This document shows positions 2,723-9,634 of a stretch of 41,500 nucleotides of DNA, piece by piece (the first letter of the stretch is position 1; each line of letters starts with the position of its first letter). This DNA comes from a virus. Both the position numbers and the translations under genes were made by a program. The DNA lies in UHGV virus genome UHGV-0377100. The stretch is one strand, 5' to 3'. The notes under the pieces were generated by a model. It was not told the origin of the DNA and made no database searches. It worked only from the letters and a program-made list of their open reading frames with translations.

Positions 2723-3129
2723 TGCGAATTATCCTACCAATTGAACCAAAGCCACAAAGTCGCCCGAGGTTTGCAAGGCGTGGGAATTATGTCCAAACCT
2801 ATGAAGATAGCGCTATGAGAGCCTATAAACAAAAGGTAAAAGCGTATCTACGAAAGACAAAACCAGAATTGATTGAAAAAGGGGCTATTTTTACGCATAT
2901 TACGTTTTACATCGCTGCCCCTAAATCTCTATTAAGTTCTAAAAAGAAACGCTTAGAAGTGGAATTATAGTGGAAATATTGCGATAAGAAACCTGACTTG
3001 GATAATTATTTCAAAGCAGTCACTGATGCTGCCGAAGGTATTTTATATAAAAACGATGTTTGTCAAAAGTTGTACAGTATACGACCACGAACAGAACTAG
3101 AAATTACAAGTTTGGAGGAACAAGTGTAG
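2722..3129 (+). pseudogene. rusA: RusA Holliday-junction resolvase interrupted by an in-frame amber TAG at 2968-2970. The catalytic KPDLDN motif lies downstream of the stop.
   Basis: N-terminus MRIILPIEPKPQSRPRF is a RusA signature. The same frame continues after the TAG as WKYCDKKPDLDNYFKAVTDAAEGILYKNDV... to TAG at 3127-3129. Uninterrupted length would be 135 aa, the normal RusA size. Confidence 0.65.
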
Positions 3130-3440: not shown

Positions 3441-3819
3441 CTTTAGGTGTGAGTTAGCACTTTCCCCAAATAAAGTGCTATTAAAAAGCCGATTAAAAAT
3501 CGACAATAAATCTCTTGCAGAGACGTGTACTACTATTAACTGTTTACCAGAAGTTAATGTAGAAAAGGAGGAAATTTATTTCATAAATAAAATCCCCAAG
3601 AAAGTTAAAGTGATTATACCATTGAAAAATAGATTTGAAAATACTTTCTATGCCAAAAATATTTATTAGATGGAAAATAGCAAATGAATAAAGATGATGT
3701 GAAAGATGACGAATGGAAGATTGTAAAATATTGTAGAATTATTATTGTTTTCTTTATAGTCAACCAATAATTTGTTGACTACAAACATGTATGAGTGATG
3801 AATATTTTGATAAATAAAT

Positions 3820-3845
3820 AGCCAGTCGGTTTCCGCCGACTGGCT
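3820..3845. repeat. Hairpin H2: perfect 10-bp stem, loop TTTCCG.
   Basis: AGCCAGTCGG-TTTCCG-CCGACTGGCT, preceded by an A-rich tract. Confidence 0.65.
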
Positions 3846-3954
3846 GAGAAGTGAATAGCTATTGGAATAGTATTCTTAGTATAATTTATATCATATAGAG
3901 TCGCTGATGAGCAAAGGATAAGCATTACTTATATATATTTGGATAAATAAAAAA

Positions 3955-3980
3955 AGCTACTTAGTTTCCGCTAAGCAACT
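3955..3980. repeat. Hairpin H3: 10-bp stem with two mismatches, loop TTTCCG, preceded by an A7 run.
   Basis: AGCTACTTAG-TTTCCG-CTAAGCAACT. Confidence 0.55.
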
Positions 3981-4036
3981 CTTAAATGATGATATGTTTA
4001 TTATAAATTATTATACCACAAAAGGAGCGATTTCAC

Positions 4037-4453
4037 TTGATTAAATTGCTAAGAGAAGTAGATTTTCGACAAACAAAAGCGAATGCCAGAAATGTGTTGA
4101 AGAACTTTAGACGTTTAGAGCGAATAGCTGGTCGCTCTTTGATAGATTTAAAATCACCAATTATTACAGATATGCCTAAAAGCCAAAGTCACGGGAATAA
4201 AGCAGAAGATTCGCTAGTACAATTAGCAGATGCAGAAGCAGAAAGAGACGCAATTTTATCTGCGCTTATGGCATTGAGCCTAACTAGCAGACAAATTTTG
4301 CATTATAGTTTCTGTGTGCAGGATCATTACTCTAATTACAAGATAGCTAGGGAAGTTGGATATTCCGAAAGAAGTATTCAACGCATGAAATCAGAAGCTT
4401 TAATTGAATTTGCTGAAGCTTATCGAAATGGAAAAATAATTGCCTATAAATAA
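4037..4453 (+). CDS. arpU: ArpU/RinA-family phage late-gene transcriptional activator.
   Basis: 138 aa. N-terminus TKANARNVLKNFRRLERIAG and C-terminal sigma-region-4-like HTH (YSERSIQRMKSEALIEF) are typical of the ArpU family. Placed upstream of the packaging genes. Confidence 0.7.
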   Translation: MIKLLREVDFRQTKANARNVLKNFRRLERIAGRSLIDLKSPIITDMPKSQSHGNKAEDSLVQLADAEAERDAILSALMALSLTSRQILHYSFCVQDHYSNYKIAREVGYSERSIQRMKSEALIEFAEAYRNGKIIAYK

Positions 4454-4457
4454 AATT

Positions 4458-4486
4458 TTGGCGGTTTTTTGGCGGAAAGTTGGCGG
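4458..4486 (+). promoter_or_regulatory. Three direct TTGGCGG repeats spaced exactly 11 bp apart, immediately downstream of the arpU stop.
   Basis: TTGGCGG at 4458, 4469 and 4480, each followed by a T/A tract. The one-helical-turn phasing suggests a protein-binding array. Confidence 0.5.
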
Positions 4487-4518
4487 TTTTTATACGAATT
4501 TGAGTGCTAATATAGTAA

Positions 4519-4592
4519 TATCGAAAGTCAAAGAAATGGACACATTACACAACGCTTTCTGGTTTAGTCACCGTTTGATTTGACTTTCGATA
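4519..4592. repeat. 14-bp perfect inverted repeat (TATCGAAAGTCAAA / TTTGACTTTCGATA) separated by 46 bp.
   Basis: Arms at 4519-4532 and 4579-4592. The motif ATATCGAAA also recurs upstream of terS. Confidence 0.5.
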
Positions 4593-4678
4593 GTCACTTG
4601 CAGACTTACGTTCTCAATAAAATGAAGTGAGGTGAATAACCTCCTCTTTTTTCTACAGGTTTGCAATGAATAACACTC

Positions 4679-4707
4679 TTGATCGAACTCTAGTTCGGGT
4701 GTATAAT
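4679..4707 (+). promoter_or_regulatory. Sigma-A type promoter with an extended -10 (TTGATC, 17 bp, TGtTATAAT) upstream of the moron cassette.
   Basis: -35 TTGATC at 4679-4684, TG at 4700-4701, -10 TATAAT at 4702-4707. A weak hairpin plus T-run terminator lies just upstream at 4629-4652. Confidence 0.5.
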
Positions 4708-4827
4708 AAGAAGTATAATCCTTATGGTTATATCTGCTAGAAAGAAGTCGAGAAAAGCACTTGTTTTTCTGACTTCTTTTTGATTTAATTAATATAGCAG
4801 GTATAAATTAAATAAGGAGTGTTACAA

Positions 4828-5742
4828 ATGAACATAGGTAATTTGAGAAATTTTATTTCAAATGTTGAAGCGGATGATAATGATAGTGTTGAAATGAAAA
4901 TGATTCAAAAAATAGGGAACGGTATATGGAGTCATACTCCACAGTTGACTATAGCGATGAGGGAAGAATTAAAAGTTTTTTACACTGAAATCCTTAATAA
5001 TAATTTTTTTGATTTAGAACAAAGTGAGTATAATCCTAATATAGTAATCGAAGGTTCACTACAAGTTTCAGATTTGACAAATGCTCACATCAATGAAGTA
5101 TTAGCTGAAATAGATCTTGAAGAAAACTGTAATGATGATATGGGAAATGTAGATTTAGATAAAATAAATTATTACAGATTTAAATTTAATTATAATGGAA
5201 ATAGTCTTTATATTTTTAGACGATTCACTAAAATGAAAAAAATTAGAAATGGTATTTTAGGTCGTTTTCAGGATAATACATTTAGAAAAATAGAGACTGA
5301 TGATTTTTTTGGAATAGATCGTGATATTGATATTTTGTTATTTGATAATGAGGCACTGATAGTCAATCGCTTTGCATTACAGACTATTTTTAAGCTTAAT
5401 GATTATTTTATTGAAAGAGCGACAACGGCGTTAAGCGAACTAGAAGAAGAAAACGTATTAGTAAATTTTGAAGACTTTAAAAATGATTGTTTAAATGATA
5501 AACTGGCAGCAAGAAGAATGACAAAAATCATTAATACCGAAGGTCGTTTGGAAGGCTTTTTACAGAATACAAGAAATTTGCCTGAGGTAATTGAACATTT
5601 TGATTTAGAAATAGAATTGAATGATAATAATCAAATCATATATAACGGAAGTAAAGAAGCACGAAGTCAGATTTTATTTTGCATATCAGATGCATATTAT
5701 CAATCGCTTATACTCCAAAGATTAGGTGAAGATCCTTCATAA
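4828..5742 (+). CDS. Hypothetical cytoplasmic protein, moron gene 1 (acidic, 305 aa).
   Basis: ORF track 4819..5742 opens with GTG. ATG at 4828 sits 8 nt after the AAGGAG RBS. No family recognised. Located in the arpU-terS moron hotspot. Confidence 0.6.
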   Translation: MNIGNLRNFISNVEADDNDSVEMKMIQKIGNGIWSHTPQLTIAMREELKVFYTEILNNNFFDLEQSEYNPNIVIEGSLQVSDLTNAHINEVLAEIDLEENCNDDMGNVDLDKINYYRFKFNYNGNSLYIFRRFTKMKKIRNGILGRFQDNTFRKIETDDFFGIDRDIDILLFDNEALIVNRFALQTIFKLNDYFIERATTALSELEEENVLVNFEDFKNDCLNDKLAARRMTKIINTEGRLEGFLQNTRNLPEVIEHFDLEIELNDNNQIIYNGSKEARSQILFCISDAYYQSLILQRLGEDPS

Positions 5743-5764
5743 ACAGAGGAAAGAGGTGAAGAGA

Positions 5765-6349
5765 ATGAGGACGATACAGAAAACATTATTTTATATGTCT
5801 TCTTTTATACCACTTTATCTGTTATTGATTGTTCAAAACTTCAAGTTCAGAAATGAATCAGGAAAATTTTCTTGGCAAACGATCTTTGATCAAATTAATT
5901 TTTCAAATAAAATTATTACATTATTTTGGATTGGCTTAATAGTCATGATTATTCTATCATTATTTGGATGTGTTATCTTTTTTAAGATTTATGGTGCAAA
6001 AGAAGGTAGAAATGGTAGCATATCAGATGCAGAATTTGTTAGAGAAGACACTATGGGGTATATTGTGACATATATAATTCCGTTGTTATCCATGGATATA
6101 ACAAGTTTGAGAAGCTTAGTAGTTAATTTACTGTTATTTATCATTATAGGGACTTTTTATGTTAAGAACGATCAGATATTTATGAACCCATTATATAATT
6201 TATTTGGGTATAATATATTTTCTGCTGAAAGTGGAATTTATATCACTAAAATATCCAAGCAAAAGTTGAAATTGTTTGCTAAAAGAGATGTAAAAGTTAA
6301 AAAGATAAATATAATGGGAGATATATACGTACTGAAAGAAAATGAATAA
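5765..6349 (+). CDS. Hypothetical 4-TM membrane protein, moron gene 2.
   Basis: ORF track 5726..6349. ATG at 5765 follows the AAGAGGTG RBS. Four hydrophobic helices (LFYMSSFIPLYLLLIV, IITLFWIGLIVMIILSLFGCVIFF, GYIVTYIIPLL, LVVNLLLFIIIGTFYV). Tightly linked to gene 1. Confidence 0.6.
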   Translation: MRTIQKTLFYMSSFIPLYLLLIVQNFKFRNESGKFSWQTIFDQINFSNKIITLFWIGLIVMIILSLFGCVIFFKIYGAKEGRNGSISDAEFVREDTMGYIVTYIIPLLSMDITSLRSLVVNLLLFIIIGTFYVKNDQIFMNPLYNLFGYNIFSAESGIYITKISKQKLKLFAKRDVKVKKINIMGDIYVLKENE

Positions 6350-6355
6350 ATTAGT

Positions 6356-6382
6356 AGCCATCGCTTATGTGGTGGCTTTTTA
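6356..6382 (+). terminator. Rho-independent terminator after the two-gene moron.
   Basis: AGCCATCGC-TTATG-TGGTGGCT followed by TTTTT. Near-identical to the terminator at 7378. Confidence 0.6.
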
Positions 6383-6410
6383 TAATGAATAATATTTTGT
6401 TTTTTTATAT

Positions 6411-6483
6411 CGGCGTGTAGCTAAATAGGTGATAGCGATTGATTTTTAATCAAGTACATGCAGGTTCGACTCCTGTCACGCCA
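6411..6483 (+). tRNA. tRNA-like gene, anticodon TTT (Lys), 73 nt, no encoded CCA.
   Basis: Manual fold: acceptor stem 6 of 7 pairs (C1 and A72 unpaired); U8; D-stem GCTA/TAGC with a GG-containing loop; anticodon stem 4 pairs plus an A-G closing mismatch; loop TTTTTAA with U33 and A37; 5-nt variable loop; T-stem GCAGG/CCTGT; T-loop TTCGACT. Confidence 0.4.
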
Positions 6484-6789
6484 ATAAGTGGCAAAACCAC
6501 TTAAATAAATTAGGAAACGTCAATAGATGTTTCTATCCTTCACGAGGAGGCATTCGCTTGTAGGATGTCTCTTTTTATATGCAAAAATACTTATAATTAA
6601 ATCATCAGAAATACATGATAGATTATAAGGAAACATAAATATCAAATTTGTAAAGCATTATATACTAAAAAGAGAATTATATATGATCACAAGTGGCACT
6701 CTAAAAGTAGAAGAAATAAAAAAAAGTAACACTATGAAAAGTACTCAACCTAAGGTAAAATAAAACAAAGATACTTTGGGGGGGTATAT

Positions 6790-7353
6790 ATGAGTTTTGT
6801 ATCGATTGCGGGTAATAAGAAATATATCAATGTCATGAGTGATGGTTTAGCAGTATATCAGGATGGGACAAGAGAAGAAAACTGGGAAAAATTTGTCAAT
6901 TACGATAATAAAAGATTTATAGCTTTCGCAGGAACCGTCCATTATTGTCAAAATGTGGTTACAGAAGCTTCTAAATATTTAGAGTTACCATACAATCAAT
7001 GGGTGAATCGGATTAAAGAATACGTCTCAAATATGCCGTATTCACAAGAAACGGGTAAAGCCATAATCTGTGTAGGTGGTAAGGATGGAACGTTAAAGTT
7101 TTCAAGTTTTTCAAATAAACCTGGGCAAAACTTTTATGATTTTGAATTAGTTGATGATAATATTCACTATGTGTTTTTAAGCAACATGGATGAAGAGGAT
7201 TTATTGGACAAAAAGTTTATGGAATTTGTAAAGAGATATCGTTCTGCTAAATCAAGAGATGTTCTGTTAGCTCAAAGAGATTTGAATAATTATGTTTCAG
7301 ATTTGAATCCAAATACTGTGAACAAAAATACTAGTTATTTTGTTTTGAAATGA
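6790..7353 (+). CDS. Hypothetical protein (187 aa), single-gene moron cassette.
   Basis: ORF with a GGGGG RBS. No recognisable family. Has its own upstream AT-rich promoter region and its own terminator. Confidence 0.6.
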   Translation: MSFVSIAGNKKYINVMSDGLAVYQDGTREENWEKFVNYDNKRFIAFAGTVHYCQNVVTEASKYLELPYNQWVNRIKEYVSNMPYSQETGKAIICVGGKDGTLKFSSFSNKPGQNFYDFELVDDNIHYVFLSNMDEEDLLDKKFMEFVKRYRSAKSRDVLLAQRDLNNYVSDLNPNTVNKNTSYFVLK

Positions 7354-7377
7354 TAGCTATTATTTTATTAAATTGAA

Positions 7378-7403
7378 AGTCATCGTTTATACGGTGGCTT
7401 TTT
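7378..7403 (+). terminator. Rho-independent terminator after moron gene 3, a near-copy of the terminator at 6356.
   Basis: AGTCATCG-TTTATA-CGGTGGCT (two G-U pairs) followed by TTTTT. Confidence 0.6.
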
Positions 7404-7410
7404 CATATAC

Positions 7411-7441
7411 AAAAAAACCGCTAATATCGAAAAATTAGCGG
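7411..7441 (-). terminator. Opposite-strand hairpin with a U-run on the minus strand (CCGCTAAT-ATCGAAAA-ATTAGCGG, preceded by A7 on the plus strand).
   Basis: Perfect 8-bp stem. Acts as a bidirectional insulator together with the terminator at 7378. Confidence 0.45.
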
Positions 7442-7539
7442 ATAGGAAGTTATAGTAAGACTTGTTGAAAGAATTATGATAGGTAAATATCGAAAACAAA
7501 ACTCAACCATTTAGATGAAAAGTGAGGTGGTGTTAATGG

Positions 7540-8343
7540 ATGGCTAGAAAAAGAGATCCACGTCGTGACCAGGCTAAAGAAATTTGGTTAAAGTCAAACG
7601 GCAAAAAGGTTCTTAAAGAATTAGCTAATGAACTAAATGTTTCGGATTCTCAAATAAGGAAATGGAAATCTATAGATAAATGGGCTGATGAATTAAAAGG
7701 TAATGTTACCAATTCAAAAAGTAACGTTACCAATAAAGGTGGAGCGCCGCCTGGGAACAAAAATGCTATAGGTAACAAAGGAAATAAAACTGCCTCACCG
7801 CCAAAAAGAAATAAGAATGCGGTAAAAACAGGCGAATATGAAACAATATTTGCCGATATGTTATCTGACGAAGAAAAGGACATCTATTCTACAATGAATG
7901 ATGATCCTTTTTTTATTTTGGAGGAAGAAATAAGAATCCTAAAAATTCGTCAATATAGAATGCTTAAACGCATCAAAGATGCAGAGGTTGACTTAAACGA
8001 TGAAGAAGTTGAACGTTTGCAGCAGCTTCGGAAAGTCAAAGAGCCATCGGTGATTGATGGAAAAATGGTCACTGTCAAGAGAGAAGTTTTAAAAGATGTG
8101 CAAGTAACTCGTAAAACATTTAGAAAACTAGATGACATTTTGGCTATTGAGGAAGCATTGACAAGAATTAGCAATCAGTTAACAAAGGCTATTAAGCAAC
8201 AGAATGCCTTGCTAGCAAATGATGCCAAATTACAATTATTGAAGGTTCAAACTGAAAAAGTTAAAGCTAGTTTAGATGCTACAAATGGAGACATGGATAT
8301 GCCAGTTTTCATCGATGATATATCAGGTGATGAATATGAGTAA
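7540..8343 (+). CDS. terS: Terminase small subunit with an N-terminal HTH.
   Basis: MARKRDPRRDQAKEIWLKSNGKKVLKELANELNVSDSQIRKWK is a TerS-type HTH. Gly/Asn/Lys-rich linker. Overlaps terL by 8 nt. Confidence 0.7.
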   Translation: MARKRDPRRDQAKEIWLKSNGKKVLKELANELNVSDSQIRKWKSIDKWADELKGNVTNSKSNVTNKGGAPPGNKNAIGNKGNKTASPPKRNKNAVKTGEYETIFADMLSDEEKDIYSTMNDDPFFILEEEIRILKIRQYRMLKRIKDAEVDLNDEEVERLQQLRKVKEPSVIDGKMVTVKREVLKDVQVTRKTFRKLDDILAIEEALTRISNQLTKAIKQQNALLANDAKLQLLKVQTEKVKASLDATNGDMDMPVFIDDISGDEYE

Positions 8344-9634
8344 AAAATTATCTGAATTTCTTCCTAAAGCATTTCATACTACTTGGAAGATAGCATTAAA
8401 CTCAAATATATTACATGTTGTTGAAAAAGGTGGCCGTGGGTCAGGTAAATCATCTGGCATAGCACACATAATCGTTCAATTGATTATGAGATATCCTGTA
8501 AATGCTGTGGCCATTAGATTTGTTGATAATACGATTGAGTTATCTATTTTTGAACAGATTAAGTGGGCTATTGAAGAACAAGGTGTGTCTAAGTATTTTA
8601 AAGTAAATAAAAGTCCTATGAAAATCACCTATAAGCCTAGGGGTAATTATATTGTTTTTCGAGGTGCACAGAATCCAGAAAGGATTAAGTCGTTAAAAGA
8701 TTCAAGATTTCCATTTGCTATAGCTTGGATTGAGGAATTAGCCGAGTTTAAAACTGAAGATGATGTAAAAACCATAACTAACTCATTGCTACGTGGTGAA
8801 TTAGCAGATGGTCTTTTTTATAAATTTTTTTATTCGTACAACCCTCCTAAGCGACGACAATCATGGGTTAATAAGAAATATGAATCTAGCTTCCAACCTG
8901 AGAATACTTTTGTTCATCATTCAACATATAAGGATAATCCATTCATAGCACAAGCATTTATAGAAGAAGTTAATGCCACGAGAGCTAAGAATCCGAAACG
9001 TGCTGAGTGGGAGTATGACGGCAAAGCTATTGGTTCAGGAGTTGTTCCGTTTGATAATTTACGAGTAATAAAAGGTTGTATAACTGATGAAATGGTAGCT
9101 AACTTTGATAATATCAGAAATGGTCTTGACTTCGGTTATGCTACTGATCCGTTAGCGTTCGTTCGATGGCATTATGATAAAAAGAAAAATGGTATCTATG
9201 CTATTGATGAGATATACGGTGTGAAAATTAGTAATAGGGAATTAGCTAAAAAACTACATGAAAAGGGCTATCAAAATGATGAAATTTTTTCTGATTCTGC
9301 TGAGCCCAAAAGTAATGCAGAGTTAGTAAATGAGCATGGTATCAATCATATAAAAGGTGTTAAAAAAGGCCCGGATTCGGTTGAATATGGTGAGCAATGG
9401 CTAGATGACTTAGATTTTATTTGTATCGATCCATTGAGGACTCCAAATATAGCTAAGGAATTTGAAAACATTGATTATCAGACTGATAGAGATGGTAATC
9501 CTAAACCGAGACTAGAAGATAAAGACAATCATACAATTGATGCCACACGTTACGGATTTAACGAAGACATGTGGGCGAAGAAAAAAACTAAAATTAGTAA
9601 AAATCAAAGAAACAAAATAAAAGGAATGTTTTAA
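8336..9634 (+). CDS. terL: Terminase large subunit.
   Basis: Walker A motif VVEKGGRGSGKSSGIAH. ATG at 8336 with an AGGTGA RBS (the ORF-track start at 8276 is an upstream alternative). C-terminal nuclease-like region. Confidence 0.85.
   Translation: MSKKLSEFLPKAFHTTWKIALNSNILHVVEKGGRGSGKSSGIAHIIVQLIMRYPVNAVAIRFVDNTIELSIFEQIKWAIEEQGVSKYFKVNKSPMKITYKPRGNYIVFRGAQNPERIKSLKDSRFPFAIAWIEELAEFKTEDDVKTITNSLLRGELADGLFYKFFYSYNPPKRRQSWVNKKYESSFQPENTFVHHSTYKDNPFIAQAFIEEVNATRAKNPKRAEWEYDGKAIGSGVVPFDNLRVIKGCITDEMVANFDNIRNGLDFGYATDPLAFVRWHYDKKKNGIYAIDEIYGVKISNRELAKKLHEKGYQNDEIFSDSAEPKSNAELVNEHGINHIKGVKKGPDSVEYGEQWLDDLDFICIDPLRTPNIAKEFENIDYQTDRDGNPKPRLEDKDNHTIDATRYGFNEDMWAKKKTKISKNQRNKIKGMF

Follow-up and report, generated by a model that had tools for sequence, protein, structure and literature searches.

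The window, by which the whole analysed stretch of 41,500 nucleotides is meant (UHGV virus genome UHGV-0377100), comes from a temperate phage of Enterococcus faecalis of the phiFL/phiEf11 type. The gene for the late transcriptional activator, arpU, is preceded by replication and recombination genes, which encode an HNH-like nuclease, a replisome organiser and RusA. An array of short repeats follows arpU, and the terminase genes terS and terL lie about 3 kb downstream of the array. The interval between arpU and terS holds a Kiwa cassette, a tRNA-Lys gene and one ORF without a family match. Homology to the phiFL-type relatives covers arpU and the 213 nt that follow it, ending near position 4666. 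The features of this region are the following.

4037 to 4453, + strand: arpU, late transcriptional activator of 138 amino acids (TIGR01637, PHROG 248), with its stop codon TAA at 4451 to 4453
4458 to 4464, + strand: putative ArpU box 1, TTGGCGG, promoter-distal (motif search)
4469 to 4475, + strand: putative ArpU box 2, TTGGCGG (motif search)
4480 to 4486, + strand: putative ArpU box 3, TTGGCGG, promoter-proximal (motif search)
4487 to 4507, + strand: spacer of 21 nt from box 3 to the putative -10 hexamer, fixed in length and divergent in sequence
4505 to 4513, + strand: putative extended -10 element TGCTAATAT, with the hexamer TAATAT at 4508 to 4513, conserved as TGnTAnnnT
4516 to 4521, + strand: second -10-like hexamer, TAATAT, 2 nt after the first, conserved as TAnTnT
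4520 to 4591, + strand: beginning of the late leader, with a predicted start near A4520, the conserved sequence ATCGAAAG from 4520 and a 13-bp inverted repeat
4629 to 4652, + strand: weak terminator-like hairpin GAGGTGAATAACCTC with a T-run, -8.6 kcal/mol, conserved in sequence in relatives
4743 to 4781: hairpin with a T-run, -21.6 kcal/mol, downstream of the Kiwa promoter
4828 to 5742: kwaB of the Kiwa system (PADLOC, E 4e-123)
5726 to 6349: kwaA of the Kiwa system (PADLOC, E 1e-74)
6356 to 6377: hairpin with a T-run, -14.4 kcal/mol, right after kwaA
6410 to 6485: tRNA-Lys
7540 to 8343: terS
8276 to 9634: terL

Two observations concern the region upstream of arpU. The RusA-like ORF (2722-2970, 82 amino acids) spans only positions 1-72 of the 124 positions of its profile and is followed by a short ORF (2998-3129); a split or a frameshift of the resolvase gene is possible. 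A match to the Enterococcus small RNA Ref1C lies on the - strand at 3784-3881 and is sub-threshold (39 bits against a gathering score of 90). Two terminator-like hairpins, at 3845-3820 and 3983-3952, accompany it on the same strand.

The array starts 4 nt 3' of the arpU stop codon. Its three TTGGCGG copies begin at 4458, 4469 and 4480 on the + strand, 11 bp from start to start, and an earlier reading of the letters alone (the sequence-only reading) had placed them correctly. TTTT separates boxes 1 and 2, AAAG separates boxes 2 and 3, and TTTTTAT follows box 3. The full phased pattern occurs once in the window, and a search that allowed 3 mismatches found no second array there; the pattern was absent from all 100 dinucleotide-preserving shuffles. 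When any 7-mer repeated three times at a spacing of 8-14 bp was sought, the TTGGCGG array was the only one in the 41.5 kb, and none of 300 first-order Markov simulations contained such a triple. Because the G+C content of the window is 33.8%, a G+C-rich 7-mer is especially unlikely by chance. TTGGCGG as such is found 9 times in the window against 1.5 expected. The six copies outside the array were rejected as further ArpU sites because they are isolated and lie within ORFs. Replication iterons and chance low-complexity sequence were dismissed in view of the published binding data and the linkage of the array to arpU, both described below.

The sequence-only reading had called the operator of the ArpU family poorly defined, a statement that is out of date. 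Quiles-Puchalt et al. (2013, NAR 41:7260, PMC3753634) used phage phiFL2A as the model for this family and described three 7-nt direct repeats immediately distal to its arpU gene. Replacement of these repeats by adenines abolished the ArpU-dependent activation of a terS-blaZ reporter. Purified His-tagged ArpU shifted a phiFL2A fragment of about 100 bp by EMSA, and binding tolerated the mutation of one repeat and not of two or more. Deletion of arpU lowered the phage titre from 1.3e7 to <100. The specificity for the repeats is set by the regulators' C-terminal part, and the repeats are necessary and sufficient for specificity among the late regulators (PMC3753634).

The phiFL2A genome (locus L001) carries at 2949-2977 a 29-nt array, TTGGCGGTTTTTTGGCGGAAAGTTGGCGG, that is identical to the array of the window. 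As no 7-mer other than TTGGCGG forms a clustered triple in the gap between arpU and terS of phiFL2A, the TTGGCGG copies must be the published repeats. The ArpU proteins of the window and phiFL2A are 97% identical, and their last 54 residues are the same. These 54 residues are also shared with phiEf11 and phiFL3A; the array is the same in all four phages, while the four proteins have an overall identity of 83-97% and differ in their N-terminal halves. The array of the window thus lies distal to the ltr gene, consists of three 7-nt direct repeats and is identical to a validated operator. Judged by this identity, the three TTGGCGG boxes are very probably the ArpU operator and would make up the half of the late promoter that lies upstream. 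The proposal that the array binds ArpU is well supported by the reporter mutagenesis and EMSA on the identical phiFL2A sequence (PMC3753634). The ArpU reading is correct but is a rediscovery, as its core has been known since 2013 on that same sequence.

What differs between the two phages lies downstream. The identical array stands right after arpU in both, with near-identical flanks up to window position 4666. In phiFL2A, it is followed by about 400 nt of non-coding sequence, a tRNA-Arg gene and an unrelated TerS, whereas the window has the Kiwa insertion, tRNA-Lys, an ORF without a family match and another TerS/TerL pair.

The array travels with arpU and not with terS. An exact-match scan of IMG/VR for the 29-nt array returned 84 copies, 80 of which have enough upstream sequence to be checked. 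All 80 follow an arpU gene. In 72 of the 80 the array starts 2-5 nt after the arpU stop codon, in 7 it directly follows an arpU whose C-terminus is slightly different, and in the remaining one about 80 nt separate it from arpU. Conversely, of 80 close relatives of the window ArpU, 59 are accompanied by the exact array and 18 by an array with one changed base, and the other 3 have no array within 1.5 kb. The single-base variants affect box 1 or box 2 only, and box 3 is unchanged in all 77 close relatives that possess an array. The three loci lacking it (L070, L072 and L081, all IMG/VR prophage contigs) encode an ArpU with the same recognition helix and have an insertion that begins directly behind the stop codon; the available 1.5 kb after arpU holds no TTGGCGG array, which has been either displaced or lost.

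Across the wider family, the sequence of the boxes appears to follow, coarsely, the putative recognition helix in the C-terminal domain of ArpU. Proteins with the helix GEKNVEKLKSIA are accompanied by TGTAGGG boxes, those with SVRTIEDYKATA by ATGTGG boxes, and those with SERQVRRVKDDA by TGTCCGG boxes. This co-variation is a coarse one, several different helices sharing the GGCGG core. The box types are the following.

E. faecium type: TGTAGGG three times, and four times in one locus
E. gallinarum type: ATGTGG, ATGTGG, ATGCGG
Eight other clades from Enterococcus or Tetragenococcus: for the most part (A/T)TGGCGG three times; TGTCCGG four times in Tetragenococcus
Streptococcus O1205 group: xCGGTAT three times
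Latilactobacillus: TGTCCGC-type
Aneurinibacillus and one other genome: TGGCGG three times plus TGGCGT

The ORF at 4037-4453 matches the NCBIfam model TIGR01637 with an E-value of 4.6e-39 (133.7 bits, cut-off 43.1) and belongs to PHROG 248, 'transcriptional activator'. No Pfam model matches ArpU, and searches of the PDB with the single sequence and with a profile gave nothing significant. An AlphaFold prediction from the single sequence was unusable (pLDDT 45.6) and was repeated with a 65-sequence alignment, which gave an AF2 model with a pLDDT of 83 and a pTM of 0.75. The model consists of an N-terminal helical hairpin (residues 10-35), a long helix (55-78) and a three-helix C-terminal domain (82-131); the linker KSPIITDMPK is conserved yet disordered in the model. 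When the model was compared with the PDB by Foldseek, every top match was a region 4 of a sigma factor (M. tuberculosis SigL and SigA, T. aquaticus sigma-A), matched by the C-terminal 70 or so residues, with target-normalised TM scores of 0.76-0.81 and an rmsd of about 2 Å, at E-values of 0.1 that are not significant alone. The protein is also weakly similar to the ECF sigma factors of NCBIfam (E 8.9e-5, 22.2 bits against a cut-off of 42.9). ArpU was nevertheless rejected as a sigma-70 or ECF sigma factor: the score is below the cut-off, only the C-terminus resembles region 4 and the rest includes a helical hairpin. There is no sigma region 2, and therefore ArpU is not a sigma factor. A helix-turn-helix of the region 4 type that reads a box beginning with TTG is a reasonable picture of how the modelled domain may recognize its operator.

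The following observations suggest that the array is one part of a promoter with a fixed geometry. No -35-like hexamer is present 16-18 nt upstream of the putative -10 hexamer, where the sequence at 17 nt is GGTTTT. In all 84 exact-array loci, box 3 is followed by exactly 21 nt, the hexamer TA(A/T/C)TAT, 2 nt, a second hexamer TA(A/G)(T/C)(A/G)T and CGAAAG, while the sequence of the 21-nt spacer comes in clearly distinct versions. The distance of 21 nt recurs in seven of eight further clades and is 20 nt in Tetragenococcus; in O1205 and Latilactobacillus the distance from box to hexamer depends on the choice of repeat frame. TGnTAnnnT is found at about the same distance at the ArpU loci of E. 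faecalis, E. faecium, Streptococcus, Tetragenococcus and Aneurinibacillus, and the second hexamer, TAnTnT, is present at its position in every clade examined. Arrays of 3-5 boxes in an 11-bp phase occur in ten Enterococcus and Tetragenococcus clades, the Streptococcus O1205 group, Aneurinibacillus and one other genome, the last two being among the matches listed by a loose contig scan (TGGCGG-N5, three times) that also yields chance matches in genomes of high G+C content. The hexamers that follow these arrays are a TAnnnT, usually preceded by TGn, then 2 nt and TAnTnT. The sequence C(G/A)AA(A/G) after the twin hexamers (the region 4508-4527 of the window) was seen at every ArpU array examined, and (A/G)TCGAA(A/G) stands there in many clades.

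Loci with more than three boxes are informative about the direction in which an array grows. An E. pallens locus (L346) has five (A/T)TGGCGG boxes and an E. faecium-type locus (L249) has four boxes of the TGTAGGG type; the extra boxes are always promoter-distal and the 21-nt distance is unchanged. An invariant box 3 together with distal extra boxes is the pattern expected if the proximal protomer contacts RNA polymerase at a fixed point. From this plan we infer an activator-dependent extended -10 promoter without a -35 element. If the first hexamer works as the -10, transcription would start near A4520 and the boxes would be centred at about -37, -48 and -59; if the second hexamer is the -10, the start and the box positions shift by 8 nt. 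In the sequence-only reading, the array came after the activator gene and ahead of the first late promoter. Its position after arpU stands, and the array itself would be the upstream part of that promoter. The consensus sigma-70-type promoter farther downstream (4679-4707) belongs to the Kiwa insertion, and the putative late -10 is only 21 nt from the array.

By combining the published data with this geometry, it is possible to propose how the late operon is switched on. The C-terminal domain of ArpU, which resembles sigma region 4, would bind the three 11-bp units head to tail, roughly on one face of the DNA, and at least two boxes would be needed for binding. The bound ArpU would substitute for the missing -35 contact, and the host RNA polymerase carrying sigma-A would then start the late transcript at about 4520. 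The transcript would run through a structured leader into the accessory genes and the tRNA, then into terS and terL, and finally into the genes for morphogenesis and lysis. The position of the -10, the start site, the head-to-tail occupancy and the contact with RNA polymerase are all proposed here from the conserved layout.

The proposed start differs from the published one. In phiFL2A, the late start was assigned by 5' RACE to a G that precedes the ATG of terS by 118 bp; the kit used does not distinguish primary ends from processed ones (PMC3753634). As the terS ATG lies at 3741 of the phiFL2A locus, this G is at 3623. A tRNA-Arg gene, which is not mentioned in that paper, occupies 3547-3621 according to ARAGORN and 3548-3620 according to Rfam (42.8 bits). 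The published RACE end is thus 2-3 nt past the 3' end of the tRNA and about 640 bp downstream of the proposed -10. The published start is probably a cut made during tRNA maturation in a transcript begun beside the repeats, as the coordinates suggest. In the same study, blocks of repeats from S. aureus phages, fused to the phiFL2A intergenic region, which is unrelated to them, conferred their own specificity (PMC3753634), a result that is easy to understand if the promoter lies at the repeats. No ArpU promoter whose primary start had been mapped was found in the literature; for S. thermophilus phage 2972, RNA-seq of exonuclease-treated RNA yielded a single early promoter and a single middle one, for which the text gives no coordinates.

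The late leader contains several structured elements. The inverted repeat at its beginning (4520-4532 with 4579-4591) has a fold energy of -23.0 kcal/mol; no claim is made for selection on RNA structure, as the variants in relatives break pairs of the 13-bp stem without compensation. In the hairpin at 4629-4652, an SD-like GAGGTGA is paired with an anti-SD-like ACCTCCTC, and a T-run and no ORF follow. Its sequence, and not only its shape, is kept in phages of E. faecalis, E. faecium and E. gallinarum (the leaders of L007, L008 and L010). The leader is also a slot for tRNA genes, Lys(UUU) in the window and Arg, Asn or Glu in relatives (L001-L005, L012); several more distant ArpU phages have a T-arm-like GGTTCGA(T/C)TCC at the same place. 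No known RNA family fits the leader: Rfam searches of window positions 3700-7600 and of the phiFL2A leader returned tRNAs and sub-threshold matches only (Ref1C at 39 of 90 bits, FMN at 16.5 of 66 bits).

The Kiwa cassette (4679-6377), a two-gene anti-phage system with its genes in the order B-A, is inserted in the late leader, downstream of the proposed ArpU promoter and ahead of terS. The cassette has a consensus promoter of its own, TTGATC-17-TATAAT at 4679-4707, and a terminator at 6356-6377. The strong terminator-like hairpin between this promoter and kwaB (4743-4781, in the stretch 4714-4790) may represent a small RNA, or a leader of the attenuator type, that controls the defence genes. 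Kiwa was found at the late-leader position in no deposited phage.

The sequence-only reading had offered TerS as the other candidate protein, the array being a pac-like recognition site at which packaging starts and which inserted genes have moved away from terS. The array does precede terS within the late region, and TerS sites are known to take the form of tandem phased repeats, but the comparison with phiFL2A, where the same array stands beside a TerS (gp34) without similarity to that of the window (BLASTP E 0.13) and a TerL of a different family (weak Pfam match), argues strongly against it. The window TerS is 86% identical to the TerS of SEsuP-1. A pac site is co-inherited with a TerS family and lies in or next to terS. 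The array is about 3 kb from terS and adjoins the arpU stop codon whatever lies downstream, at 80 of the 80 checkable loci (at one of them from about 80 nt away), and it is the ArpU helix, and not the terminase, with which the boxes change. ArpU binding accounts for the array fully, and a packaging role is extremely improbable. A quite different modification of the proposed promoter makes ArpU a surrogate of sigma region 4 that reads the proximal TTGGCG as a displaced -35, with the distal boxes aiding cooperative loading. The resemblance of the C-terminal 70 or so residues to region 4 structures (TM 0.76-0.81), the weak similarity to ECF sigma factors (E 8.9e-5), the agreement of TTGGCG with TTGACA at four of six positions and the rigid distance from the proximal box to the -10 are consistent with this idea. 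It is nonetheless doubtful: the gap between TTGGCG and the -10 is 22 nt instead of 16-18, the Foldseek E-value of 0.1 is not significant, sigma region 2 is missing and the score is under the curated sigma cut-off, and the need for at least two boxes (PMC3753634) fits a DNA-binding activator that acts free of the polymerase.

The hairpins between the proposed promoter and terS count against simple recruitment, a model that gives no account of how they are passed. The late transcript must cross hairpins of -8.6, -21.6 and -14.4 kcal/mol with T-runs, and there is no second array. Possible explanations are that the terminators leak when set against a strong promoter, that terS is fed by other promoters, or that the polymerase resists termination. 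The last would be the case if ArpU, instead of or besides recruiting RNA polymerase, were loaded on it by means of the array and made it resistant to terminators, as the Q protein of lambda does. Transcription that entered the phiFL2A reporter from Pcad failed to reach terS when ArpU was absent, from which the authors inferred an intergenic terminator (PMC3753634). No hairpin was found between the arpU stop codon and the -10, and therefore the terminator of that reporter would lie downstream of the proposed promoter. Reporters placed downstream cannot tell activation from antitermination, and the second -10-like hexamer just after the -10 is conserved in all clades. The same data are, however, explained by a strong promoter followed by leaky terminators, and a promoter without a -35 fits dependence on an activator. 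ArpU has no similarity to Q proteins in Pfam, NCBIfam, PDB profile or Foldseek searches, and no paper on antitermination by ArpU, RinA or LtrC was found. The second hexamer would span about -4 to +2 and overlap the start, whereas sigma-dependent pause elements act in the transcribed region. A Q-like action of ArpU is accordingly improbable, and there is little likelihood, by analogy with lambda Q/PR', that the array, the twin -10-like hexamers and the hairpin of the leader act jointly as an antitermination device coupled to the promoter. If they did, one promoter could serve the whole late operon, about 25 kb in length, in spite of the terminators that inserted genes such as Kiwa carry, and the failure of upstream read-through to reach terS in the phiFL2A reporter would be explained.

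The preferred description is that of an ArpU operator joined to an activator-dependent late promoter. What is added here to the published work, a promoter geometry that would be fixed across the ArpU family and the probable misplacement of the phiFL2A start site, is modest. The geometry is of practical use in annotation: the motif of 3-5 boxes at an 11-bp phase, 21 nt, TGnTAnnnT, NN and TAnTnT would mark the start of the late operon from Enterococcus to Aneurinibacillus, and everything between the array and terS, including defence cassettes and tRNA genes, would sit inside the late leader.

The proposed arrangement can be compared with several known systems. Among them are the other 'Ltr' late regulators of this superfamily, namely Alt of Lactococcus phage TP901-1, Ltr/P23 of S. 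aureus Phi13, RinA and LtrC, which have upstream repeats and behave in the same way. Alt binds repeats at -76 to -32, and the repeats of the Phi13 regulator lie at -107 to -42. The protein families, the box sequences and the repeat lengths (18 bp in Phi13) are different, and no description of a 21-nt spacing to twin -10-like hexamers was found for the Alt, Phi13, RinA and LtrC systems. The lambdoid Q/PR' system also has a single late regulator acting at the late promoter, a leader with a terminator-like hairpin and a very long operon. It differs in that the proteins have no similarity, PR' is constitutive and has a -35, and the position of the pause element does not match.

The tandem 11-bp geometry itself has counterparts among bacterial activators. 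The pho boxes of PhoB and the heptamers of the SARP regulators consist of 7-bp cores with 4-bp A/T-rich spacers, which are arranged in tandem and abut or replace the -35 in front of a good -10. Direct repeat units of 11 nt are described for Streptomyces PhoP (PMC2275107). Together with its putative -10, the ArpU array shares with the PhoB, PhoP and SARP sites this layout of tandem 11-bp units. These activators are, however, winged-helix proteins of the OmpR type, whereas ArpU is modelled as a helix-turn-helix protein of the sigma region 4 type.
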